The translations under genes and the position numbers were made by a program. A DNA stretch of 64,000 nt from an uncultured virus (IMG/VR IMGVR_UViG_3300034062_002168) (taxonomy: Duplodnaviria > Heunggongvirae > Uroviricota > Caudoviricetes), in the IMG/VR virus record IMGVR_UViG_3300034062_002168; one strand, 5' to 3'. The notes under the pieces were generated by a model. It worked only from the letters and a program-made list of their open reading frames with translations, was not told the DNA's origin and searched no databases. Below, in pieces: positions 2,774 to 63,478 of the stretch; position 1 is the stretch's first letter, and every line of letters starts with the position of its first letter.

Positions 2774-5700
2774 TTACTCTGGTCGCCTAGGCACTCTTGC
2801 TGGCCTTTGCGTAGTACCGGTCGGTCTTGCCTTGGCCTTGGGCTTCTTCCCGTATACACTGATCCCTCCACCAAGCAGTCCGTAGAATGAAAGGAATCCT
2901 TCAAGCGCACCCGGATCCTCCTGCATCAAATCACCGACCGTACCAACGTAAAGTGGCATCAGACGCTCGTTGAACTCGTCCTTGAACACGTAAGGATCCT
3001 TGTCGTACTTACTGTATCGCTTACCGTCCTTTCCTATGGTGGTTCTGGCGGCTTCGACAAGGAACGATGCCGATGGGGATAGTTTATTCATGGCCATGGT
3101 CAGGCCAACATCGAACATCGTTGGGGTTCCGAACCCCTTCCCAAGTGGCATCGTTTTGTCTCCGCGCTTGTACGCGTCGATAGGCTTGTCCATGAAAAGA
3201 CTGATGCCTCCAATGGTCATCCTAGTCATGGCTACAGCCTGCTGCACCCGACCACCCCACGGGTCAATTCGAATATCTCCGAGTCGGATCTTCCCAAAGT
3301 CTGAGCTTCTTGGGTCCGTTTCAACATACGTTTCATCGTCGTCGTCTCCGGCAAGGGCGATAGCGGCCAGCGTAACAACACCCATCGTAGTGCCAATGAA
3401 CCTGCCCATATCAAGGACGGCCATCTTTCTGGCGGTTGGCGTCATCTTGCCGAAGTGATACAATCCGTATGGAGTTCCTGTCTTGATGGCCGACGCCCAC
3501 ATCCTTGGAGAGTAGAACATTCGGGTCAGACCCTTGGAGAATCCTTCTAGCGCCCCCAGTGATGCACGGCCCGTCAAAGTGTTCACCACGTCGGCCACGT
3601 CCTTGTAGTCCTGAGTGGTAACCTCCTTGCCATTGATGTCAGCCTTGCGGGCCTCCAGCATCTTCACTCCCTCTAGATATCGCTCGACTCGCAGCGTATC
3701 CAGATATGCGCTTGCGCCCCTCTCCAGCGCCCTGAATGGGTTGGCGGCCACCCACTTGTCGTGAGCCGCCCTGCTTTTCAACAAAAGCGGGGATCCGGCG
3801 ATAGCCCACGCGATACGCGTCCAGTCGGACATGAACAACTCCTCCCTTCCGGTAAGCTCTGCGTGCGGCTGTGTGATGGCCAGCTTTGCCTCCTTCGCCT
3901 GATCGTACCAAGGCTGGGCCTTGATCTTGCGGAGCCAATCCTCCGACTTCTTTTCGCTGTTCATGGCGGTGAACATATTCTTGAACGCACTAGCAACAAC
4001 ATCCGGCCTTCGCCACATATTGCTTACTGTCAGTGCGCCGCCCTGCAAGAGAACGAACGACAGATCAAGCGTTGACTGAACGGCACGCAGAACACCCCAA
4101 GCCTCCCATCCGGCATCGCCAAGGCGTTGGCTTGTGGTCCTGTTGCGCATCATCTCCTTGTAGAAGTCGGCATCGTACTGCTCCTTGATACGCTCCTTCT
4201 CTGCGCGAAGTATAGTTAGCTCGTCGTCTGCAATGGTCTTGCGAACGGGCTTCTTTGAGAAGTCCTGATCCGCGACCCTGCGCTCGAGTTCTGCAATGCG
4301 TTTTTTGGTAGCCTTCTTAGCCGCCTCGGTCCTCCTGCGATCAACAACGCCAGCCTCGTCCTGTAGCTTCTTGTAGTCGTCGCGTAACTTGCTCAGATTT
4401 TGCCGAGCTATCTTCAACTCTGGAGTTTCGCGTACCGGAGTTGGCTTCTTTGGATCCAGTTCGTTATCTGCGATCCTGCGCTCGTACTCGTCGATCGACC
4501 TACGGATAGAGTCGAGTGCGGACTTCACTCGCATCTCCTCGGTAACTACCCTTTTCCCGAACACGCGGTCGTGCTCCTCCTTGAGCATGTCGCGCTCCTT
4601 GATCAGTGCTGCCAGTTCGCTGTCAGGAACGATGCCGGACTGATTCCTTTCAGCACGCTCCTTGGTGTCAATCTCCCTTTGAAGATCCTCGATGCGGTTG
4701 CGGGCGCGGGTCTTGGCCGCTTCAAGTGCCGTCTTCAAGACACGATCGTTTTCTGCCTGATCCATGGGCAGGTCCCTCATCGCGTCACGCAGCTTGTTAT
4801 GAAGAGCACGCTGTTCTGCGTCCAGCTTGTCGCGCTGCAATCCACTGCGCATTGGACGCATCTTTTTCTCTATGTCCTCCAGAGCGGATGCTACACGACC
4901 AATATCCTTCATCCTGCGGATGGCGACAGATATTTCGTCCTTACTCATGTTCACCACCTTCCCGTATCCGGTGATGGCGTCACGTATCTCGCGGTCGGAA
5001 GCGTCAGGGTACCGGTCCTTGATCTGCTCCTTAATAACTGATACCAGCATGTCGATATCGCGGATTCCGGCAGCAACAGCGTTGCGGATCATGGCAACAG
5101 GAACCTTGACGCGTTCGTTTCCAAACCCCTCCGAAGCTCCCTTTACGGCATCCTCTAGCTGGCTCATTACGGCCATCTTGTTCCGGTCATCCAGAGATGA
5201 GAACCACTTCTGCTTGTTCAGCTTCTCCGCCATTGCGGTAACAGCATCGGCGACTTGTCCGGTCTTCTCGATGGCCTTCGCTCCAACCTCGATCAATTCG
5301 TTCCAGTCGAACGGCAGGGCAGACCCCAGCTTGGTGATGTTGATCGGATTGCCGTCGGCATCCAGAATAACGATAGGCTTTGTCTTCAGTGTTCTGAACT
5401 GGTCGGCCATACGCTTGGCCTGACTGGAGTACTTGCCGGACTTCTTTCGGTTGTTTTCACGAATCACCGACTCAGCTATGGACTGAATGGCCTCCTTGGC
5501 CTGAGCCTCCTCTTCACGCTTCTCTGCCGCGTCAATTTTCTTCTTGAGCTCGGCCAGCTTCTCGTCCCTCTTGCGCCAGCCGTCCATGATCTCCTTGGAT
5601 GGACGCTCTCCAAACTTGTCCTCCCATTCCTTGGCCTTCTTCTCGGAATGGTATCCAAGGTCAGAGTTCTTCAGGATGTCGCCCCATGCGGAGTTGAATC

Positions 5701-37662: not shown

Positions 37663-39344
37663 AGGTTGCTGATGTTAATGGTCACGCCAATGTTGGCAGT
37701 TGGCAGGTTCTGGGAGTACACCTTGACGCTGCCCGCTGCGCTGTCCGTCCTCGGAAGGATGCCAGCGGCAATGACAGTAGCTATATCAGCGTTGTTGGGG
37801 ATAACATCCACAATGGAAGCTGCTGTAATGTTGGCGTTGGCCAAGTTCTGCTCGTATAGGCCACCGACAAGCGACCACCCTGCGGTGGTAAGCGTCAGGG
37901 AGCCTACCTGTAGTATCTTCTTGCTTACGTCAAGTGCTGTTCTGGCATTGGCTGGCGTCAGGTTCTCCCATACGCTGGTCCCAGTGTTCCAGTACAGGCC
38001 ACAGGTGTTGGTCGCTGGGGTGGTGATGAGTACGTCATGCAGCTCATTCAGCTCAAACCCGTTGAGGGGAGCGATGTAGATCTCACCGGCTCCCCCTGAC
38101 TTCTTTACACAATAGGCCACGCGGACCAAGTGGTCGGGGGCCACTGGCTTTGTGTTCACCAACTGACCTGCCACGGTCGGGGACAGGTATAGCACATCCC
38201 CATCATTGAATGAGTTCGTGTTTAGGTTGGTCATGATGCCAAGCACCTGAACAAGCCCCTGAGAGTTGTTAGCAATTGTCTCGGCCACCACGCCCACCGT
38301 ATCTGCGCTGTTAGGGTCTGAGTCCGCCTGCGCCAGAGACACAACCGGACGGATGCCACTTGAACCGTTGACCCTCACCACCTGCCCCTTGGTCATCGGG
38401 CTACCGCTGTTGTTGTAGCCGTACAAGAACAAATCCTCGCTAATGTGCGAGTGGACGTTCCCGCCCTTTAGCCCAAGCTGCAAGGAACCCTCTGCGTCAC
38501 TCCACTGCAACCTCTTTGCAGCTATTGCCGTGATCGGGGTGGTATTGAAATCTATCGCGTCAACCTGACCCAGCTTGCCGTTGTCGTCCAGCAGAACTGT
38601 GCTGTTCTGGATAAGCTTGCCCGTGGTGAGGTTGTACCTAGTTATGGCGTTGTCTGTTGCCGATGCGGGGCCAACAACGTCACCGGTTGATGTTGGAACC
38701 GAGTGCCACGTTCCGTCAGCCTTTAGATACTTGTTGGCGGCAGCGTCACCAGCGGCCGGAGCCGGTACCGCCCCTCGCAATCCTCCGGATCCGGAGTCTC
38801 CAACGAAGGTGTTGATGCTGATGGCTGGAGTTGCACCACCGCTCGATACAATAGGAGCCGTTCCACTGACAGAGGTCACTCCGCCGGTACCATTACTAGC
38901 GGCAGTGATCCGGCCGTCGGCGCCAATGGTAAGGTTGGGGTTCGTGTATCCTCCGGGCGTTACCGCCGTGTTGGCAATGGCAACGATCGGATTCTCTGGA
39001 TCCAGTGAATCCACGGTGATCCCAGACCCCGGAACGATGGTATCGACCGTTCCTCCAAGGCCGGAGGACATATTGGGGATGCCTAAGATCGCAGAAATGT
39101 CGTCGATGGCTCTCTGTACGCCGACTTGGTCGTTCGTCCACGTCCTTTGGTTTGTGACGGGCTGGCGAAGGTCGAACCGAAAGACCTCCTGTCGATCCAC
39201 GCCCTCGAGGATAATGGAGGTGTAGTTCTGGGTCCCTACCGACTGTCCCTCCACGGTGATGCCAGTGAGCTCCTGTCCGGCAAAGACAAGTGTTCGTGTT
39301 GGCTGCTTGAAGCGTACCAACTTGGCGGTGAGGAAGACTTCCAT
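37659..39344 (-). CDS. Tail fibre protein
   Basis: 561 aa; GGYTNPNLTIGADGRITAASNG, GVTSVSGTAPI, YLKADGTW and GDVLYLSPT fibre motifs; promoter box TAACTTCG at 39349-39356. Confidence 0.75.
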   Translation of the reverse strand: MEVFLTAKLVRFKQPTRTLVFAGQELTGITVEGQSVGTQNYTSIILEGVDRQEVFRFDLRQPVTNQRTWTNDQVGVQRAIDDISAILGIPNMSSGLGGTVDTIVPGSGITVDSLDPENPIVAIANTAVTPGGYTNPNLTIGADGRITAASNGTGGVTSVSGTAPIVSSGGATPAISINTFVGDSGSGGLRGAVPAPAAGDAAANKYLKADGTWHSVPTSTGDVVGPASATDNAITRYNLTTGKLIQNSTVLLDDNGKLGQVDAIDFNTTPITAIAAKRLQWSDAEGSLQLGLKGGNVHSHISEDLFLYGYNNSGSPMTKGQVVRVNGSSGIRPVVSLAQADSDPNSADTVGVVAETIANNSQGLVQVLGIMTNLNTNSFNDGDVLYLSPTVAGQLVNTKPVAPDHLVRVAYCVKKSGGAGEIYIAPLNGFELNELHDVLITTPATNTCGLYWNTGTSVWENLTPANARTALDVSKKILQVGSLTLTTAGWSLVGGLYEQNLANANITAASIVDVIPNNADIATVIAAGILPRTDSAAGSVKVYSQNLPTANIGVTINISNL

Positions 39345-39399
39345 AGCGCGAAGTTACCTGATAGTCAGTTAGTTAAGGCAATACACCCAGCGTATTCCG

Positions 39400-39945
39400 G
39401 AGGCGTCATAGGTGGCAAATGGGGTGTCCGTGGGATCCACGGGGTGAAGGTAGTTCCTTCCCAGATCGGACCTTCGTGGATTAAAAAACGAGAGTTTATT
39501 TTTTTTCGTCGGGCGCAGCCCAAGGTGAGAAGTTATTACGAGGAACGAGTAATAACTGAACACCTTGTTCCCATCCCCACATTGAGACCGAATAACAGCC
39601 CCCCCTCCCCCCGCCAGATCCGTCGTTTCGACGTTATCGAGCAGGTGTGCCTTGCGGCACCACTGAACCGATCCTCGTGGATCAATTCACCGGGAGAGGG
39701 GACGCGCCCCGCGAGTTCATCACCCGCATCCGCTGCAACCATCCTGTCCGCCTTGGCGAAGGGAGGTTTATCACGGACCCATTGGTCAATTCCAACGTGG
39801 CGGTTCTCCCATCGAAGGGACATCTTCTTGTGGACCACCACAAAAGAGGAACGCCAGCTTCCGGGTTACGAGGCCCCTTGGCTGGCGTCCAGTCCTTCAC
39901 AGGACTAGCTTTCTGTCAGTTTTGCGACCTCGTATCGCGGCAGTA
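39400..39945 (-). ncRNA. Candidate large structured ncRNA (or origin-like structured DNA)
   Basis: No credible ORF; many hairpins, two with minus-strand GNRA loops (GTGA, GCAA); promoter-like TACCTTTA at 39951-39958; boundaries approximate. Confidence 0.5.
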
Positions 39946-39965
39946 CGGTGTAAAGGTATTATTCC

Positions 39966-40085
39966 TTACTGATCCGACAAACTATCGTCGAAAAATTTCA
40001 TTACCAAGGCCATCACGGTCGAGATTCCTGCTATCACAACCAAGGTAAGCAGAACGTTGAACAGTGTGGTTGTTAGGTCTTCCAT
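39966..40085 (-). CDS. 39-aa membrane peptide
   Basis: Hand translation MEDLTTTLFNVLLTLVVIAGISTVMALVMKFFDDSLSDQ; TGATG overlap with the upstream gene. Confidence 0.5.
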   Translation of the reverse strand: MEDLTTTLFNVLLTLVVIAGISTVMALVMKFFDDSLSDQ

Positions 40086-40324
40086 CACTCGGCCGTATAT
40101 GGAGAGTTGTTAAACACAGCGAACCCGATGGCTGTTTTATCCCTGTCGGTCAATCCGCGAGTACGGCTCAACACCGCCTCGTGAATCTCGTTCTGCCTCT
40201 TGGATGACAGCTTGTGGTCCATGTAGTCCTTGGCCCTGTGATAGTCGATCGGTGGATCGGCCTCCTCGTACATCTGTTCGAGAATTTCGTTAACGATGGC
40301 TAGGAGTTGCTTCTGTGACTTCAT
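40085..40324 (-). CDS. Small hypothetical protein
   Basis: 79 aa with an A/C-rich leader. Confidence 0.65.
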   Translation of the reverse strand: MKSQKQLLAIVNEILEQMYEEADPPIDYHRAKDYMDHKLSSKRQNEIHEAVLSRTRGLTDRDKTAIGFAVFNNSPYTAE

Positions 40325-40344
40325 TGGTTAGGTTTAGTAATGTA

Positions 40345-40700
40345 TGACCAGTGGTCCCGCCGCTGCCTAACTCTGCCGTTCGTGCATCCGAACGGTGGCT
40401 TAGGTGGCGCGTCCCGGAAACGGCTCCACCGCGTGGTGCGGCCACTGGTCAATATCACTGCTGGTGGTGGGTTCTTGTAGCGGCCCTTGATGGATAACCA
40501 TCCTATACCGACGCCTGTACGGGTAAAAATTCCCCCACCAACCAGCAATACTGTAAAGAACGTCGATGCCTATCGTGGTGGCATCACTTCCAAGTGGCGG
40601 GATGACGCACCCGGATCGCGTGTGGCTGCTTGTACGGGGTATGCCACAAACCCTAGGCCGACTAAGCCATCCTTGGCCCGGAGTCACCGGGTGTTCCTGC
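40345..40700. ncRNA. Three tandem ~100-nt stem-closed structured units
   Basis: Terminal inverted repeats close 40345-40451, 40456-40550 and 40597-40700, each with internal hairpins; strand ambiguous. Confidence 0.5.
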
Positions 40701-40701
40701 G

Positions 40702-40774
40702 TGTACCAAGTAGGACTCGAACCTACGACCCTCCACCATCAAGGTGGTCGCTCATCCATACGAGCTATTGGCAC
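40702..40774 (-). tRNA. Atypical tRNA (nominal anticodon TGA, short variable loop, identity uncertain)
   Basis: GTGCCAA TA GCTC-GTATGGAT-GAGC G ACCAC-CTTGATG-GTGGA GGGTC GTAGG-TTCGAGT-CCTAC TTGGTAC A; CCA not encoded. Confidence 0.8.
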
Positions 40775-40780
40775 ATTGTA

Positions 40781-40887
40781 TTGACCGTCGCACGACTGTT
40801 CCCTAAGGCCGATGAAGCGGGACCAATGAACAAATCCCTAACGCCCGTTGCGGGATCTCCCCGCACCCCATGTGCGCAAACGGTCAA
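40781..40887 (-). ncRNA. Stem-closed ~107-nt structured unit upstream of the tRNA
   Basis: TTGACCGT/ACGGTCAA plus CGCAC/GTGCG stems; first element after promoter box 40907-40914. Confidence 0.5.
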
Positions 40888-40906
40888 GATAAAAAAGAAC
40901 GTGGCA

Positions 40907-40971
40907 CAAAGGTACGAACAACTTTTTTCTCCGTGCAAGTGTTGGTGTAAAGTTTTTTGTACTTATCTTTG
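40907..40971. promoter_or_regulatory. Divergent promoter pair
   Basis: TACCTTTG (minus, 40907-40914) and TATCTTTG (plus, 40964-40971). Confidence 0.7.
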
Positions 40972-40979
40972 TGACCTAC

Positions 40980-41525
40980 ATGAACTACACAGCAAGCGGG
41001 TCGTTGCCGACCCACCAGTACGTATGGGTGGACTCCTCGTTCATCCGTAATGACAAAAAAGGCTTTGAACGAGCGGTATGGTTCGGGCTCAACTCGCACC
41101 CGGGAAGGGCATGGGGATGCCACGTAATGCTTGAGTGCGGGGCGGTGTACCGCAACCTACCGCCCAACGCTATTGCGTTCAGCGAAAATCCAAAAATCCC
41201 AACGGACGGTTGGCACGTCACCGATGCGCAGGTATGGAACTGCTACGGAAGGCAGTTTTCCCTGCACTGCTACGACTACTTGAGCGGCCTTAAGGTTAAG
41301 CTGTCCGACTATAGCAGTGGCACGTACATGTTTACAGCGATTCCATTTGGTGATGGGTTCAGCGAATATCCTGAGCAAAGCAAGGAGTTCATGTTTGTCC
41401 GCACCGAACACGATCTGCTGGTTATTGTCCCAACCAATGAACTCCTCTTTATTGAAGAGAGCTTCACCATCGACGAATGGCCAACTGACCTCAAGGCCAT
41501 GAACCAAGTTTACACCTGCGAGTGA
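40980..41525 (+). CDS. Hypothetical phage protein
   Basis: ATG 40980 just after a promoter box; HVMLECGAVYRNLP...QVWNCY. Confidence 0.75.
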   Translation: MNYTASGSLPTHQYVWVDSSFIRNDKKGFERAVWFGLNSHPGRAWGCHVMLECGAVYRNLPPNAIAFSENPKIPTDGWHVTDAQVWNCYGRQFSLHCYDYLSGLKVKLSDYSSGTYMFTAIPFGDGFSEYPEQSKEFMFVRTEHDLLVIVPTNELLFIEESFTIDEWPTDLKAMNQVYTCE

Positions 41526-46335: not shown

Positions 46336-46399
46336 CTTCTGTTTCAGGTTAAGGGTTAGTTGATCGACCACAAAGGTAAGAAACAATTCTAACCTTCTG

Positions 46400-47240
46400 A
46401 CATCTACCCGAAACTTTTTCGAGCCAAGGGAGGGTACCGGTACCTAAACACACCCCCTACCCGATCCACAGGGGAAAGTGATGGACGGTAGATAGCTCGG
46501 GAGGGCCGTTTTATGGGACCCTAGTGCGTTATCTATCGCTGGGTGGTACTTGGGGTAGTCTGAATGTGAAATAGGCCCCTGTAGGCCAAGGATCTAATTG
46601 TGTCGATTTCGAGGGAATTGATCCACGGTCGGTTGGTGTCAAGTAGTTGAGATAAAAGCTGTCTCCACCCCGTGGCACTTCGACACTTGTGTTTTGTGTT
46701 TCAGTACGAATCTGGTGGTTTGGTGAGAAGTAGTTGGGACAGGGTTGGGTGGTCGGTTGGGTCGGGTGGGAGGTGTGGCTTGGGAGGTGTGGCTATTGGT
46801 CGGGTGGGAAGTGTTTCGTTGGTGGGAGGATATATCGGTAGGTGGGGGACCCACACACTACAACATACCCCCCGGCCTGCCAAAATGACAAACCGACTGC
46901 CAAGCTGGCCGATATCAGGCCAAAAGGGAACCTAGCCACCTGCCACGTTGGCATGACATTACCGGCCACCGGGTGGCTAGCTTTCCAAGGGTGGGCCATG
47001 TGGTGGCCTGTCATTTAGGCAAAGGCCTGATTCTCAGCTAGTTACGAGGGAAAGTGGTGGCGCGTAATATGTATTCTGTTAAGCTGGGCCATGTCATGTT
47101 GGGATTGCAAGCATGACAGCATGACACAATGGCAGGTCAGCGAATATTCGCTGAGGGCGAATGTTTCGGTGGGCCACCTACAGTACCAAACGCAACACAG
47201 TAACACATAGCCAAACCACTATGTGTTCACGCACGCACGT
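46400..47240. other. Long non-coding control region (possible origin, packaging site or genome end)
   Basis: No credible ORF; G/T-skewed tract, ATGACA repeats and palindromes; directly precedes the early genes. Confidence 0.5.
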
Positions 47241-47256
47241 ACCATACCTTCGCAAC

Positions 47257-47472
47257 ATGGACCGTAGTACCACCCACCCGATGCACCGCCGGTGCAAGGC
47301 CCTCTACACCCGCCAGCAGATAGCCGACCGCCTTGGCTGCTCCATCGGTACCGTCAGCCGTCTACAGCGGTCCTTCCTCACACCACGCCAGCGGGCCTAC
47401 CTCAACGCTGTGGGCTACGTGGCGTCCTTCCATCCTAGACGCAAAAGCACGCCCCCTGTAGACCCTGTATAG
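47257..47472 (+). CDS. Small helix-turn-helix DNA-binding protein
   Basis: TRQQIADRLGCSIGTVSRL; ATG 4 nt after TACCTTCG (47245-47252). Confidence 0.7.
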   Translation: MDRSTTHPMHRRCKALYTRQQIADRLGCSIGTVSRLQRSFLTPRQRAYLNAVGYVASFHPRRKSTPPVDPV

Positions 47473-47709
47473 CCCGAGGGCTGCATTTCGTAACTCCCTG
47501 ACCGTCAGGCAGGTGCATATTTATTTTCACCGTGCATTTCGTTTCGGTGCAAATGCTCTGAATCCCTTGGTGCTGTAGGGCTGTAGCGATATGTTAACGA
47601 ATGTTAATGTCCTACAGGCCCCGTCAATGCTGGATTGTTCGATTTGCGCTTTCGTTTCGCACACCCACATCTTTGCATCATCATCAACGAAACGAAACAC
47701 ACACACCAC

Positions 47710-49822: not shown

Positions 49823-49966
49823 ATGAAACACTGCCCACTGTGCCAATCACCCAGCAGCAAGCTGGGCAAGATGGGTCAAATGACGTGGTATCGCTGCTCA
49901 GGCTGCGGTATGCAGCACTTCACCACCCACCCTTCTATGAACAAGTCTAAGACCAAGAAAGCATGA
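49823..49966 (+). CDS. 47-aa zinc-ribbon protein
   Basis: Hand translation MKHCPLCQ...WYRCSGCGMQ; ATGA overlap with the next gene. Confidence 0.65.
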   Translation: MKHCPLCQSPSSKLGKMGQMTWYRCSGCGMQHFTTHPSMNKSKTKKA

Positions 49967-50337
49967 ACAACCAACCCCGACCTCTAGAAGTAGGCGACGA
50001 ACTAGTGCAGCGCACCGGATGGCAGGGCGATTCGTTCACCATCTATCCCATCACCCGGGTCACGGAACACTTCGCCTTCAGCGGCAATGACGCCAAGTAC
50101 CAGCGCCAGCTACGCACCAAGTATGCTGGACGACACACCGGGGCGCTTGAAGCCCGCGTAGCTGGTGGTGGGTACGAGTACCACGACCTGATGAACGATG
50201 CCATCCGTGACGAGATGCAGCAGGGACAGGCCCGCAGGGACGCGATGGCCCGCTGCCGGAACATCGACTTCAAGCGGCTGACCACCGAGCAACTGGAGGC
50301 CATTGCGTCCATCGTAGAAACCAAACCTAACAACTAG
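49963..50337 (+). CDS. Early hypothetical protein
   Basis: 124 aa. Confidence 0.7.
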   Translation: MNNQPRPLEVGDELVQRTGWQGDSFTIYPITRVTEHFAFSGNDAKYQRQLRTKYAGRHTGALEARVAGGGYEYHDLMNDAIRDEMQQGQARRDAMARCRNIDFKRLTTEQLEAIASIVETKPNN

Positions 50338-60010: not shown

Positions 60011-60502
60011 ATGGCGATAACAGAAGAACAGCTCAAGGCTATGAAGGGCCGAGTGAAGAGCAAGGCTACGGGAGTGGATGTGATGATAGGCATCGACCCC
60101 GGCACCCATACTGGCTACGCGGTCTTCCACGTTCCCCTCAACACGCTCACCGAGGTCACGTCCATGGGCATAGTGAGGGCTATGGAACTGGTGTACGCCA
60201 CCCACAAGACCTACAAGGAGATCGGGAAGGTGATCCACGTCTACGTAGAGGACACCCGCAAGCTACGCCTACCCAAGGCCATGCAGTCCAAGGGCAGGGA
60301 GCGTGGTGCCGGGTCGGTAGCGCGTGACATGTCGATCTGGGCCGAGTTCCTCGAGTATCACAACATCCCACACACCATGTGCGGGCTGTCTCCCAAGGAG
60401 TTCCGGCAGTCCACCGACGAGTGGTTCAGGAAGAAGACGGGGTGGGACAAGCGGACGAACGAGCACGGACGCTGTTCTGCGGGATTGATCTGGAACCGAT
60501 GA
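60011..60502 (+). CDS. RuvC-like Holliday junction resolvase/nuclease
   Basis: IGIDPGTHTGYA, VYVED, TNEHGRCSA; promoter box at 59998-60005. Confidence 0.75.
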   Translation: MAITEEQLKAMKGRVKSKATGVDVMIGIDPGTHTGYAVFHVPLNTLTEVTSMGIVRAMELVYATHKTYKEIGKVIHVYVEDTRKLRLPKAMQSKGRERGAGSVARDMSIWAEFLEYHNIPHTMCGLSPKEFRQSTDEWFRKKTGWDKRTNEHGRCSAGLIWNR

Positions 60503-60954
60503 CCCTCAAGCGCAAGACCCCACTCCGGCCAAAGAAGGCCATCAAGGCCAAGAAGCCGTGCGTCACCGTGGAGCAGATGATGTCCTCCGGCCTGCTGGCC
60601 CGTGGATCAACCTTCTCCAGCAAGCCCAAGCGGATCAAGCCACGGGCGGCGAAGAAGCCGGGAGGCAAGACCCAGATGGAAGTGTTCCAGCAGATCTGGG
60701 ACGAGCGTGATCACGTCAGCGAGGTGTCCGGGCAGTGGCTGGGGGATGAGATGCAGCCAATCTTCATGAGTCACTGCCTGCCGAAGGGTGCGTACCGTAA
60801 ATACAAGTTTGACCCACGGAACATAGTGCTACTTACTGCGGAAGAGCACGAACTATGGCACCTCAAGGGTCCGGAGTCACTTAGCCAGTTCGATGCGTGG
60901 AAGCCCATCTGTGACCTGTACTTCGAGTTAAGGGACGAGGCCAACAACGTGTAA
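60499..60954 (+). CDS. HNH/NinG-like nuclease
   Basis: MTLKRKTPL...SHCLPKG...NIVLLTAEEH. Confidence 0.6.
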   Translation: MTLKRKTPLRPKKAIKAKKPCVTVEQMMSSGLLARGSTFSSKPKRIKPRAAKKPGGKTQMEVFQQIWDERDHVSEVSGQWLGDEMQPIFMSHCLPKGAYRKYKFDPRNIVLLTAEEHELWHLKGPESLSQFDAWKPICDLYFELRDEANNV

Positions 60955-61018
60955 AGAAACTGGCCAAATCTTTACATGTGTTCGTCAACATGTAAAGATT
61001 TGGCCAGTTTCTTTACAC
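60949..61018. repeat. Perfect 31-bp inverted repeat with an 8-nt spacer
   Basis: GTGTAAAGAAACTGGCCAAATCTTTACATGT (60949-60979) and its exact reverse complement (60988-61018). Confidence 0.95.
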
Positions 61019-61026
61019 AACGCAAT

Positions 61027-61060
61027 AAGCCCCGGCAGTTACGCCGGGGCTTCTTTTATT
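61027..61060 (+). terminator. Intrinsic terminator at the convergent junction
   Basis: AAGCCCCGGC-agttac-GCCGGGGCTT followed by CTTTTATT. Confidence 0.8.
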
Positions 61061-61069
61061 GCCGTACCT

Positions 61070-63478
61070 CTACGCTGCCCAGAGTTCGACTCCAGTGCAG
61101 CTAAGGTTCAGTGTGTTGAAGATAGTGGGACTACCGCCGAACAACTGGCTGATGGTTGTTGGTGTAGGCAGCAGGATGGTGATATCCGCGGCCGCTGCGT
61201 TAGTGGTGAACGAACCCACCACAGTGTTCAGGTTGCTGGCCAGAACGAACTGACGGTTACCGTTGGTCCTTACAGCGTTGTTCAGCCATCGGGAGTTGGC
61301 ATTCTCCCTGATGATCGCCCCTTTAAGCACGATCCTGCGCACACCATTGATGACTGGCGAAAGCACTTGGTTGGCATTGATGGCGCTGGCTGGTCGGCTA
61401 TCGAACTGGGTGCTGTAGTTCGGGCCGGTGATGCTTCCAGCCTTCCATGGTGCACTGGCTAGGTTCACGCACCCGGGCAAAGCCACAGGGTTCAGCCCGT
61501 TGAACGTTACGCTGTACAGCGGAGTTGGGCCGGGAGGGGGTGGAGGCGGCTCCACATTCTGCACGAGCAGGTTCGCAGTCCCCACGATGGCGTTCACCGT
61601 GTACCGAACCACCACACTGCCGGGGGCCGTAGTGGTCACCAGACCTGTGCCCGAGATGGTAGCGGGTCCGGAGGCAATGCTCCACGTACCGCTGGCCGAC
61701 ATCGGGACCCCGTTCTGGTCGAACACCACCGCAGTTGCCTGCACCGTTCCACCGAATGGAATGGTGCTGCTTGACAGCGTCACGTTGATGGTCGTGGGAA
61801 CAGGGGGCTGTGGGGCTGGGTTGTTTGCAGTGAGTGTATTGCTTCCACTTACCGCGCCCTGAGAGTACTGAACGAGGATGCCACCGGCAGACAGTGCCGT
61901 CACTACACCTGCCCCGGTGATGGTAGCAGAGCCAGAGACGATGCTCCACGTACCGGCGGGGGTGATGGTGTTGCCGAACTGGTCGGTCACAACAACAGAC
62001 GCCTGAGAGGTCTGCCCCAGCACCACAGCGGTCGGGTTTAGCGACACCACGATGTTCGTGGGGATGCCAATGGGGGGAGGAGGCGGGGGCGGAGGAGGAA
62101 CGGAACCCTCTCCTGCTGGAGGAGCGATCGTGTAGGGAGGGGTGCCAGCTTGGTTGTCCCATGCGCCGATGAACGCCCCGGTGTTGTTGTCCACCGCCAG
62201 CGTACCCAGACGACCGGTGGCCATGTTGGTCACCAGCACGGGCTGGAAGAAGTCCGAGATCAGTGCGCCACCAAGCTCACTGGTCCAGCGGAAGTTCTTG
62301 ACGCGGGTGCGGAAGTACCCGTTCTTGTTGAACTGGCCGGACAGCGCGTCATTGATCCACATCTTGCGGTTGAACACGTCGTGCAGCAGTCCATAGCAGG
62401 GGCCGAACAGCGCGAACATGTCAACGGACACCTGACAGGAGTTCGACAGGGTTCCCGTGTTGTTGAAGTCGGCGTTGATGCGGAACATGCAGTGAGGAGC
62501 ACCGTTCACGGCGGCGTACTGAATGTGGCCGAATGATGCCTGCACCCACCCCTGTGCGTCCATGACCATCGTTCCCTTTCCAACCGGGCGGTTGGGGGCA
62601 GGGCCGGTCTCGCTCTTGTACCACGAGCAGTGGAAGGAGGTCGAACCAACGCGACCGTAGCCACCCTCCACACGGAACACAGCGGGGCACTCGTCGCTCT
62701 CCACGCTGTTGAAGTTGTGCTGGCCACCACCCTCCAGCCAGAAGGCCGCAAGGTTGTTGTTGAAGCTGGCCGCTTGGCCGTAGTTCACGTAGGTTCCACG
62801 GACGTGGTGGAATCCAGCCCCCTCAAAGTCATCGGCGAACACGTTGTGGATGAAGGCATTGCTGCCCATGTCCCACACCTGTACGCCGCACTTCAGAAGC
62901 AGTGGGTTGTAGACGTTCGACGCCTTGTTGCCCACCAGTCGCATGTTGAGCAACTGGAACGCCTCGTTGTATCCGAACAGGTTCTCGTCGCCCCATGTTC
63001 CGGACTGCCAGATGGCGTCCTCGTCGTCACCCAGCCAGCGGGCCTGATCCAAGTGGAGGGAGGTTGATCCCTGACCGAACGTGCCGCCAAAGTCGGGGCC
63101 GTTGGTGAAGAACTCGCTGGACCCCTGACCCGAGTAGATGCCGAATGCAAGCGGCAATGGGAAGTTGATCTCGTAGCGACCGGCGGGAATGTTGATGTTC
63201 ACGCGGCTCTGGCAGGTGGCCGTGTAAGCAGCAGCATGGCCAGACCAGATGGCATCGCTGATAGCAGCGGTCATGCAAGTGAGTTGCATAAAGGTGGTGA
63301 TGTTGCCACCGATGGCCTGCCATCGTGCCCAGAAGTACTGGAATGCTGCCTGTGCTTGGGCTTGGCTGAACCCAGCGTCCGTCAGGGTATCGTTTCCGAT
63401 TCGCCAGTCAAACTGTGCCCCTAGTGGAGTGGTGTACTCCTCTAGGATATTGTAGTACATCTGGTTGTTGCGCGTCAT
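61070..63478 (-). CDS. Beta-helix plus tandem Ig-like domain protein (receptor-binding or decoration)
   Basis: INIPAGRYEIN beta-helix start; poly-Pro linkers; two ~85-aa similar Ig-like repeats; promoter box at 63497-63504. Confidence 0.75.
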   Translation of the reverse strand: MTRNNQMYYNILEEYTTPLGAQFDWRIGNDTLTDAGFSQAQAQAAFQYFWARWQAIGGNITTFMQLTCMTAAISDAIWSGHAAAYTATCQSRVNINIPAGRYEINFPLPLAFGIYSGQGSSEFFTNGPDFGGTFGQGSTSLHLDQARWLGDDEDAIWQSGTWGDENLFGYNEAFQLLNMRLVGNKASNVYNPLLLKCGVQVWDMGSNAFIHNVFADDFEGAGFHHVRGTYVNYGQAASFNNNLAAFWLEGGGQHNFNSVESDECPAVFRVEGGYGRVGSTSFHCSWYKSETGPAPNRPVGKGTMVMDAQGWVQASFGHIQYAAVNGAPHCMFRINADFNNTGTLSNSCQVSVDMFALFGPCYGLLHDVFNRKMWINDALSGQFNKNGYFRTRVKNFRWTSELGGALISDFFQPVLVTNMATGRLGTLAVDNNTGAFIGAWDNQAGTPPYTIAPPAGEGSVPPPPPPPPPIGIPTNIVVSLNPTAVVLGQTSQASVVVTDQFGNTITPAGTWSIVSGSATITGAGVVTALSAGGILVQYSQGAVSGSNTLTANNPAPQPPVPTTINVTLSSSTIPFGGTVQATAVVFDQNGVPMSASGTWSIASGPATISGTGLVTTTAPGSVVVRYTVNAIVGTANLLVQNVEPPPPPPGPTPLYSVTFNGLNPVALPGCVNLASAPWKAGSITGPNYSTQFDSRPASAINANQVLSPVINGVRRIVLKGAIIRENANSRWLNNAVRTNGNRQFVLASNLNTVVGSFTTNAAAADITILLPTPTTISQLFGGSPTIFNTLNLSCTGVELWAA

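Follow-up and report, generated by a model that had tools for sequence, protein, structure and literature searches.

A mostly non-coding stretch with folded modules and a tRNA look-alike behind one promoter box in a lake-water crAss-like phage: a candidate RNA island

The locus described here lies at 39345-40970 of a 64-kb stretch of DNA from an uncultured virus (IMG/VR record IMGVR_UViG_3300034062_002168), called the window below, which is not a whole genome and which we treat as part of a crAss-like phage. It comprises a leftward promoter box, a gene-free stretch of about 560 nt that holds a transfer RNA (tRNA) look-alike, two small protein genes and a second non-coding block (block 2), and it sits between that promoter and the first large structural gene, which codes for a 561-aa protein (Table 1). 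An earlier note on this DNA had proposed that the stretch around the tRNA is a tandem array of four stem-closed RNA units of about 100 nt, here called E, D, B and A in the order of leftward transcription, and that they make up a phage small-RNA operon. The locus turns out to be stronger than first described at its downstream end and weaker at E and D. Units A and B, and a further module, F, inside block 2, are well folded, block 2 prefers the leftward (minus) strand and has diverged little, modules vary between near-identical strains in the manner of cassettes, and the region is absent from all relatives searched. We tentatively read the stretch as the upstream half of an RNA island that is confined to this lineage, covers about 1.6 kb (39345-40915), is for the most part non-coding and is punctuated by the tRNA look-alike; this is the reading we prefer, with a confidence that stays somewhat below even.

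Table 1. Features of the locus and of its rightward neighbour, with positions in the window
Feature	Positions	Strand	Remarks
Promoter box TACCTTTG	40907-40914	-	heads the leftward transcription unit
Unit E	40781-40887	-	between the presumed transcript start and the look-alike; long closing helix, interior poorly defined
tRNA look-alike	40701-40774	-	anticodon UGA; 5-nt variable loop; G3:U70; A73; U37; C32/G38; G14; no encoded CCA
Unit D	40597-40700	-	unsupported as a folded unit
Short hairpin between D and B	40551-40596	-	-11.6 kcal/mol, z -2.61; 2 of 200 shuffles as good
Unit B	40456-40550	-	closing helix of about 16 bp with one bulge; three hairpins inside
Unit A	40345-40451	- (strand of action ambiguous)	12-bp closing helix; two small hairpins and one long one
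79-aa gene	40085-40324	-	codon score +0.36; phrog_13954, E 1.3e-07; 5 homologs, 58-95% identity
40-aa gene	39966-40088	-	hydrophobic product; codon score +0.27
Block 2	39345-39965	-	621 nt, gene-free; structured RNA candidate; reaches the start codon of the 561-aa gene
Module F	39598-39709	-	within block 2; 12-bp closing helix and three hairpins (four-way junction)
Rightward promoter box TATCTTTG and 180-aa gene	box 40964-40971; gene 40983-41525	+	phrog_3704; ATG 11 nt past the box; mark the strand-switch point

The promoter box and the gene-free stretch

The minus-strand promoter box that had been placed at the head of the stretch is present, and is one of 13 exact copies of the same 8-mer in the window. 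The more general octamer TAnnTTTG (TANNTTTG sites), which we take to be the -7 promoter type of Bacteroidota, occurs 25 times against 15.05 expected. We built a gene map of the window from codon scores, in which real genes average +0.38 per codon with a fifth percentile of +0.14. Most of the TAnnTTTG boxes lie 4-30 nt ahead of the start of an open reading frame (ORF) on this map, and short leaders are therefore the rule in this phage. For the box at the head of the stretch, the nearest downstream coding start is at 40324, 582 nt away. Together with the box of the 180-aa gene it forms a mirror (inverted) pair, and no other plus-strand TAnnTTTG box is found between 34742 and that rightward box at 40964. 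No terminator-like site was found on the minus strand in 39200-41100.

The codon-score map has only six gaps of at least 150 nt in the 64 kb, and 40325-40970 is one of them. The eight ORFs within it (46-187 aa) score from -0.08 to -0.27 per codon, and a PHROG search with all eight gave no match at E<=0.1. Hidden protein genes in 40325-40970 were rejected on these negative scores and on the lack of PHROG matches, and the earlier claim of about 560 non-coding nt is borne out by the same evidence and by the gap in the gene map. Searching the stretch with Rfam 15 and ARAGORN returned one tRNA, the minus-strand element already noticed there, and nothing else even at E<=10 with lax filters, so that the covariance-model check leaves standing the note's failure to match the units to a known family. 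Pseudo-tRNAs inside the units were considered and set aside, as extra ARAGORN calls appear only where the thresholds let spurious calls fill both strands.

Folded modules, block 2 and the tRNA look-alike

Each unit was folded on both strands, within the bounds drawn for it in the note, and compared with dinucleotide shuffles. Units A (z -3.35 on the minus strand, -5.04 on the plus) and B (z -3.50 and -3.69) have long stems and beat their shuffles, as expected of stem-closed units, but E and D do not. For E, whose 13-nt arms show 85% complementarity, z is -1.43 on the minus strand and -1.91 on the plus, and -1.35 (minus) when the leader is included. For D, which has no stem closure on the transcribed strand, the values are +0.29 (minus) and -1.42 (plus), and -1.33 (minus) for the wider stretch 40551-40700. 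Watson-Crick closing helices of at least 10 bp (one interruption allowed, span 61-135) number 39 in the 64 kb, and the region has two of them (A and B); two or more such helices are found in 7.5% of 570-nt segments. The helix of unit B is one of only four of at least 12 bp in the whole window.

The units do not form an array of related elements. An alignment of the four has 43% mean column identity, which is not alignable, and a covariance model of unit A detects no further copy of it within the window at E<=10; on these two grounds we rejected the units as paralogs. Shared ends and motifs had been reported between A and E, between B and D, and ahead of E and B. They are at the level of chance, with three repeated 8-mers in the stretch compared to 3.49 in shuffles and one repeated 9-mer compared to 0.95, and the words CCCGTACA, ACGTTCTTT and GGTCA(N)TACA are just mildly enriched across the window. 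Since the repeat counts equal those of shuffles, the motifs were rejected as signals. The asymmetry in G-U pairs is as previously described (minus and plus strand respectively: A 0 and 8, B 4 and 2, D 4 and 5, E 4 and 0). The plus-strand G-U pairs of A are A-C mismatches on the minus strand, and include two copies of one tandem mismatch motif. What survives of the proposed phage small-RNA operon is thus a gene-free piece of phage DNA with a promoter, two well-folded units and no Rfam family; E, D and the shared ends do not, failing refutation checks that the note itself had set.

By its predicted fold, block 2 looks to be the strongest RNA candidate of the locus. It folds at -254.4 kcal/mol (z -7.98) on the minus strand compared to -233.5 kcal/mol (z -3.92) on the plus, with 63% of its bases paired, and no other 600-nt block of the window is as structured on the minus strand. 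Inside it, module F reaches -67.0 kcal/mol (z -6.48; minimum free energy (MFE) frequency 0.40) on the minus strand compared to -47.0 kcal/mol (z -3.42) on the plus, an advantage of 20 kcal/mol, and its helices have probabilities of 0.95-1.0; in these models no other fold of the locus is as well defined. A, B and F have a common design with no common sequence, namely a closing helix of 12-16 bp that encloses three hairpins. Two further ideas were tried and rejected: a 101-aa ORF inside block 2 (39536-39841, minus strand) has a codon score of -0.02, and in a related strain (L098, below) it is interrupted by a stop codon and a 1-nt deletion, and a 561-aa gene split by an intron is rejected since its relatives align from residue 1.

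The tRNA look-alike scores 43.5 bits against the tRNA model (RF00005; cut-off 29) and is also called by ARAGORN. Its score ranks 74th of the 78 tRNA matches in G001, a genome bin that holds a 99% copy of the phage region, and thermodynamic folding gives it the shape of a rod with a 5-nt loop and not a cloverleaf. A canonical tRNA has a 7-nt anticodon loop with a purine at position 37, and A14 in the D loop. The anticodon loop of the look-alike reads C-U-U-G-A-U-G, with U37, and pairing of C32 with G38 can leave a 5-nt loop; its D loop has G14. A G3:U70 wobble with A73 is the identity mark of alanine, and the look-alike carries it, with g+t at the third acceptor pair and discriminator A in the ARAGORN drawing. 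In a review (PMC9976931), G3.U70 determinants are mentioned, and serine identity in bacteria is stated to rest mainly on a long variable arm. The look-alike has a 5-nt loop in place of that arm, and discriminator A rather than G.

Judged from these features, the look-alike seems more likely to be charged with alanine than with serine, if it is charged at all. That it reads serine codons as serine is unlikely and any decoding role is doubtful, and processing enzymes could still recognise its acceptor and T arms. A role in codon supply was rejected because UCA is an ordinary codon in the phage (8.4 per 1000). In one sequencing run (X13) a variant breaks acceptor pair 6-67. Alanine charging, if true, would imply mistranslation or a non-decoding role, and the combination of G3:U70 with a serine anticodon poses a testable question, whether the element is charged with alanine or is a processing handle only. 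Dense tRNA arrays are found elsewhere in G001, on the small contigs C284, C290, C158 and C310 (5-10 tRNA matches per ~3 kb each), which are probably other phages binned with that genome.

Strain variants, relatives and known RNA families

Only near-identical strains were found to carry the region. Lake water is its source, with 14 lake-water metagenome runs carrying 85-100% of sampled words from 40050-41150. A scan of metagenomes had L098, a 98% strain copy, as its sole match. When 1571 nt were compared by BLAST with 41 relatives of G001 and 401 genomes from its phylum, G001 itself was the only full match; there were also 11 short matches of 19-57 nt, nine of them within the tRNA, and the five that were checked proved to be tRNA genes for Arg, Asn, Lys and Val. 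Against 50,697 phage records, BLAST with 751 nt and with block 2 found no homolog, and neither did exact-pattern scans of viral contigs (with a stretch of the tRNA, two of unit A and one of block 2) or an exact-pattern scan of genome contigs. Searching viral and genome contigs with the 79-aa protein and its alignment led to no locus, although three of that protein's five homologs are diverged, at 74%, 65% and 58% identity, the last of them on a 15.8-kb contig. BLAST and single-sequence covariance models of unit A (R1) and module F (R2), run over 50 whole IMG/VR records of related phages, gave no real match, an absence that carries little weight unless a positive control is run; one match of 19 nt had E 0.0095.

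Additionally we compared the region with loci of relatives, 80 around relatives of the 180-aa gene and 15 around relatives of the 561-aa gene. Neither blastn of 39345-40990 nor tblastx synteny against these loci found any similarity. None of the 75 loci scanned for tRNAs has one (60 of the 80 and all 15), nor does any of five whole records of relatives, two of which are 99-100% complete. The closest complete relatives have a separate promoter box for the homolog of the 561-aa gene, ~50 nt upstream of it, and the neighbours of that homolog are a divergent gene and a region that is AT-rich and bears repeats. As the relatives lack both the tRNA and DNA similarity, and have their own promoter some 50 nt from the gene, we take the 1.6 kb between promoter and 561-aa gene to be a lineage-specific insertion. 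In one relative (L085, 3000-3420), the AT-rich stretch upstream of the homolog is accompanied by two 104-nt copies of a repeat with 87.5% identity (3163-3266 and 3305-3407), which are rich in GCAAA-type words, possibly an origin or regulatory array of the relatives.

The strains that do carry the region differ in ways that bear on its modules. The window and G001 have 11 differences over 4601 nt, of which five fall in a 44-nt part of B (40476-40519) and another in E, which amounts to 6 single-nucleotide polymorphisms (SNPs) in the 586 nt of the stretch compared to 5 in the ~4000 nt of its flanks. Runs X13 and X14 share the B haplotype of G001, and 40476-40519 looks like a swapped patch bounded by an intact closing stem. 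In L098 the 13 nt after unit A are replaced by ~115 unrelated nt (L098 1843-1965 compared to window 40325-40344; z -2.17). The extra stretch, whose folding is moderately good, lies between unit A and the 79-aa gene, and is the gain or loss of a whole module in a strain that is 98% identical. A 156-nt contig from run X15 matches 40340-40467 (unit A) at 90-95% likeness and continues in different sequence beyond. Its changes are confined to 40381-40401, where one C-G pair of the apical hairpin becomes A-U and the loop is changed, as read from the table of an alignment with indels.

When the eight variant events at predicted pairs of E, B and A are placed on MFE structures, six keep and two break a pair on the minus strand, compared to two kept and six broken on the plus. 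For instance, the G001 variant at 40875 turns a G-U pair into A-U in the closing helix of E, the variants at 40465, 40507 and 40513 in B preserve minus-strand pairs, and those at 40352 and 40368 (T>C) in A preserve pairs on the minus strand only. On these modelled structures the pattern points to RNA pairing on the transcribed strand. Block 2 has three differences from L098 in its 621 nt, all at unpaired positions, and the adjoining 561-aa gene, over 863 nt, has 17, including 14 synonymous ones. We estimate that block 2 is ~12-fold less diverged than the adjacent synonymous sites (~0.5% compared to ~6%).

A parallel in organisation is found in phage T4, whose species 1 and species 2 RNAs (rnaC and rnaD) are reportedly small stable folded RNAs within a tRNA cluster, which share a promoter and are freed by host tRNA-processing enzymes. 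The likeness is one of organisation alone, with no sequence or model match behind it: folded non-tRNA modules (A and B) stand beside a tRNA element, with one promoter box and no minus-strand terminator-like site. However, our locus has a single deviant look-alike and no working tRNA cluster, its four-way junctions have longer stems, and processing is proposed only.

Block 2 resembles the RNAs GOLLD (RF01998) and ROOL (RF03087), as a likeness and not as a member: it is phage-borne, comes from lake water, folds strongly, lies ~740 nt downstream of the look-alike, and has a length (621 nt) within the size range of ROOL. In a preprint (bioRxiv 10.1101/2024.12.08.627333), both are described as highly folded RNAs of phages and prophages, often near tRNAs, whose function and protein partner are unknown. 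The two models have no match at E<=10 in 40200-41050, 39300-40100 or 39200-41000 and none at the gathering score in the whole window, and no other Rfam model matches block 2 at E<=10 in the last two of these searches. The locus further differs from GOLLD and ROOL in having no covariation-supported architecture, and its 40345-40914 stretch strings together separate modules instead of forming one giant RNA.

The YrlA and Y RNAs have a long closing stem with a branched interior, lie next to a tRNA or mimic one, and count phages among their carriers. A, B and F share the long closing stem, the branched interior and the tRNA-like neighbour, but have no T-loop-like hairpin loop. The 6S and Y RNA (YrlA) models of Rfam give no match at E<=10, and a Pfam scan of 74 proteins of the window found no TROVE (Ro) domain, which leaves the suggested 6S/Y-like mimicry unsupported. 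Theta ribozymes, minimal versions of the hepatitis delta virus-like (HDV-like) fold, are described in another source (PMC10879173) as lying directly 3' of phage tRNAs in Bacteroidota-rich habitats, with a proposed role in maturation of the tRNA 3' end. Our locus is alike in having an RNA stretch directly behind a tRNA gene in a phage. A loose descriptor of our own for the nested HDV-like fold found no candidate on the minus strand of 39300-41000, including the tRNA's 3' end, and there is no Rfam HDV match. A theta or HDV ribozyme was therefore rejected, given also that unit D folds no better than shuffles. Group I intron, transfer-messenger RNA, RNase P, signal recognition particle RNA and 6S RNA were rejected for lack of an Rfam match. 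A literature search found no such modules in crAss-like phages, which does not prove that none are in print. In the Rfam searches the folded modules match no catalogued family. Structured phage RNAs beside tRNAs (T4 species 1 and 2, GOLLD, ROOL) have long been without known function, and the locus adds a compact case from a crAss-like lake phage.

Readings of the locus and its surroundings

If the locus is an RNA island, then a leftward transcript would start from the promoter box a few bases past 40907 on the minus strand and run through E, the look-alike, D as a spacer, the short hairpin, B, A, the two small ORFs and block 2 with F, and then into the structural genes. RNase P and RNase Z act on any tRNA-shaped element, and for this reason we infer that the host enzymes would cut at the look-alike, RNase P on its 5' side and RNase Z on its 3' side. 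The RNase P cut would free E as a leader RNA of ~125 nt, and cleavage at the look-alike would part the downstream modules from the promoter-proximal portion and give them a new 5' end. Co-transcription, processing and discrete RNAs are the inferred parts of the reading. As the modules are strain-variable, absent from relatives and well folded, we lean towards accessory RNAs of host interaction, which would be traded between related phages like cassettes. Our guess is that they serve host take-over or counter-defence, as decoys or binders of an RNA-binding protein of host or phage. The window itself codes for one possible candidate partner, a 124-aa protein (49963-50337, plus strand) that gives an end-to-end alignment with the Pfam "Phage ProQ C-terminal-like domain" at 25.2 bits, just below the cut-off of 27, and that may be a phage RNA-binding protein.

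Several observations weigh against an RNA island with discrete modules. The 586-nt stretch folded as a whole (z -2.26 on the minus strand, -2.64 on the plus) is as a block not an outlier compared to coding DNA of the window (mean z -0.41 and -0.33). Units E and D fold no better than shuffles, also with wider bounds, and unit A folds better on the non-transcribed strand, where it has eight G-U pairs and on the minus strand none. Covariation support consists of the single compensatory pair read from the table of the X15 contig, and no diverged homolog was found to add to it. The variant counts are small (eight events), and the structures on which they are placed were modelled on the allele of the window, a choice that works in favour of that allele. 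The sole RNA-labelled run with the phage (X17, a metatranscriptome) covers 40059-40221, part of the 79-aa ORF, and may reflect DNA carry-over; runs of "organism A" contain the unit-A piece only, and their RNA label is a guess. A recent recombination tract could also explain why block 2 has diverged so little, and the function proposed for the modules is a guess that rests on no result here.

The first alternative is that the 1.6 kb act in cis, as a long structured 5' leader of the structural operon that controls the timing, antitermination, mRNA stability or translation of the 561-aa gene and those that follow, with no discrete small RNA of importance. It fits with block 2 reaching the start codon of that gene with no TAnnTTTG box between, with the lack of minus-strand terminator-like sites, and with the marked exception that a leader of ~600 nt makes in a phage where leaders elsewhere are 4-30 nt, an exception that wants a reason. 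The promoter box ~50 nt upstream of the gene in relatives also speaks for it, but cuts both ways, as the homologous gene there does without such a leader, which is therefore not required. A tRNA-like element in a leader would normally be excised, two protein genes lie inside, and cassette-like variation of modules among near-identical strains is unexpected of a tuned regulatory leader. We consider this explanation unlikely on balance.

Evolutionary debris is a second alternative, to which we attach a similarly low probability. On this account the region is decaying foreign DNA, a former tRNA island or moron, with a pseudogene tRNA and leftover or chance stems, and it draws on several of the findings above: the region is missing from all relatives searched, the look-alike ranks near the bottom of its list and departs from the norm in both its anticodon loop and its D loop, an acceptor pair is broken in one strain, E and D fail to beat shuffles, and SNPs are denser in the stretch than in its flanks. 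However, phage genomes as tightly packed as this one, with its six gaps of at least 150 nt, rarely retain 1.2 kb of junk, and the promoter box is intact. A, B and F fold with z of -3.4 to -6.5, polymorphisms in stems mostly preserve pairing on the transcribed strand, and block 2 lies ~12-fold below the estimated synonymous divergence alongside.

Least probable, and in our view very unlikely, is an element acting as DNA at the place where transcription diverges, its hairpins being formed as cruciforms or in single strands and belonging to an origin of replication or to a site of packaging or recombination. The position at the strand switch would suit it, and so would the AT-rich, repeat-bearing region upstream of the gene in relatives and the hairpins of unit A and of 39826-39908, which fold at least equally well on the plus strand. 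However, module F and the whole of block 2 strongly favour one strand, and only on the minus strand do stem variants retain G-U pairs. No tandem repeats or iterons were found in 39345-40970, the tRNA-like gene and the promoter indicate RNA, and a better candidate for an origin lies at ~46730-46810. That candidate belongs to the largest gene-free gap of the window (46387-47709, 1323 nt), which adjoins the gene of a small helix-turn-helix protein (47161-47472). G-rich iteron-like repeats at 46730-46810, with a 14-nt unit in two exact copies as well as degenerate ones, make the gap, and this part of it especially, a candidate replication origin.

If the RNA island is accepted, a bolder version of it can be drawn, which is speculative and which we would expect to fail rather than hold. 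Lake crAss-like phages may share a pool of swappable ~100-nt four-way-junction RNA cassettes (A, B, F and the L098 module) behind one promoter, with an alanine-type, non-decoding look-alike that serves solely as a cutting signal, and with a ~600-nt ornate RNA of a new family. The cassettes would be swapped like protein morons and act as decoys against RNA- or tRNA-targeting defences of the host, possibly with the ProQ-like protein at 49963-50337. The locus is an orphan and its value is that of a lead, to a short transcription unit in which a promoter, at least three well-folded modules and a look-alike with probably no capacity to decode come together. Should the modules turn out to be stable RNAs, natural strain variants, with one module present or absent and with the interior of B swapped, would provide ready-made genetic contrasts.

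The window is treated as crAss-like on account of four of the proteins it encodes. The 1522-aa product of 16479-21047 matches the Crassvirus muzzle protein (PF25731, E 8e-13), the protein of 26772-29120 matches the P22-type portal, and the window also codes for a giant protein of 3798 aa and a DnaB-type helicase. Its G+C content is 51-59%, and its genes are densely packed, running leftward up to ~40.9 kb and rightward past there. The strongest hairpin of the window lies far from the locus, at 60949-61018 (wider 60901-61060), with a perfect 31-bp stem and a sliding-window z of about -8 to -9 on both strands. It stands between the ends of two convergent genes (60421-60954, plus strand, and 61070-63478, minus strand) and is probably a two-way terminator.

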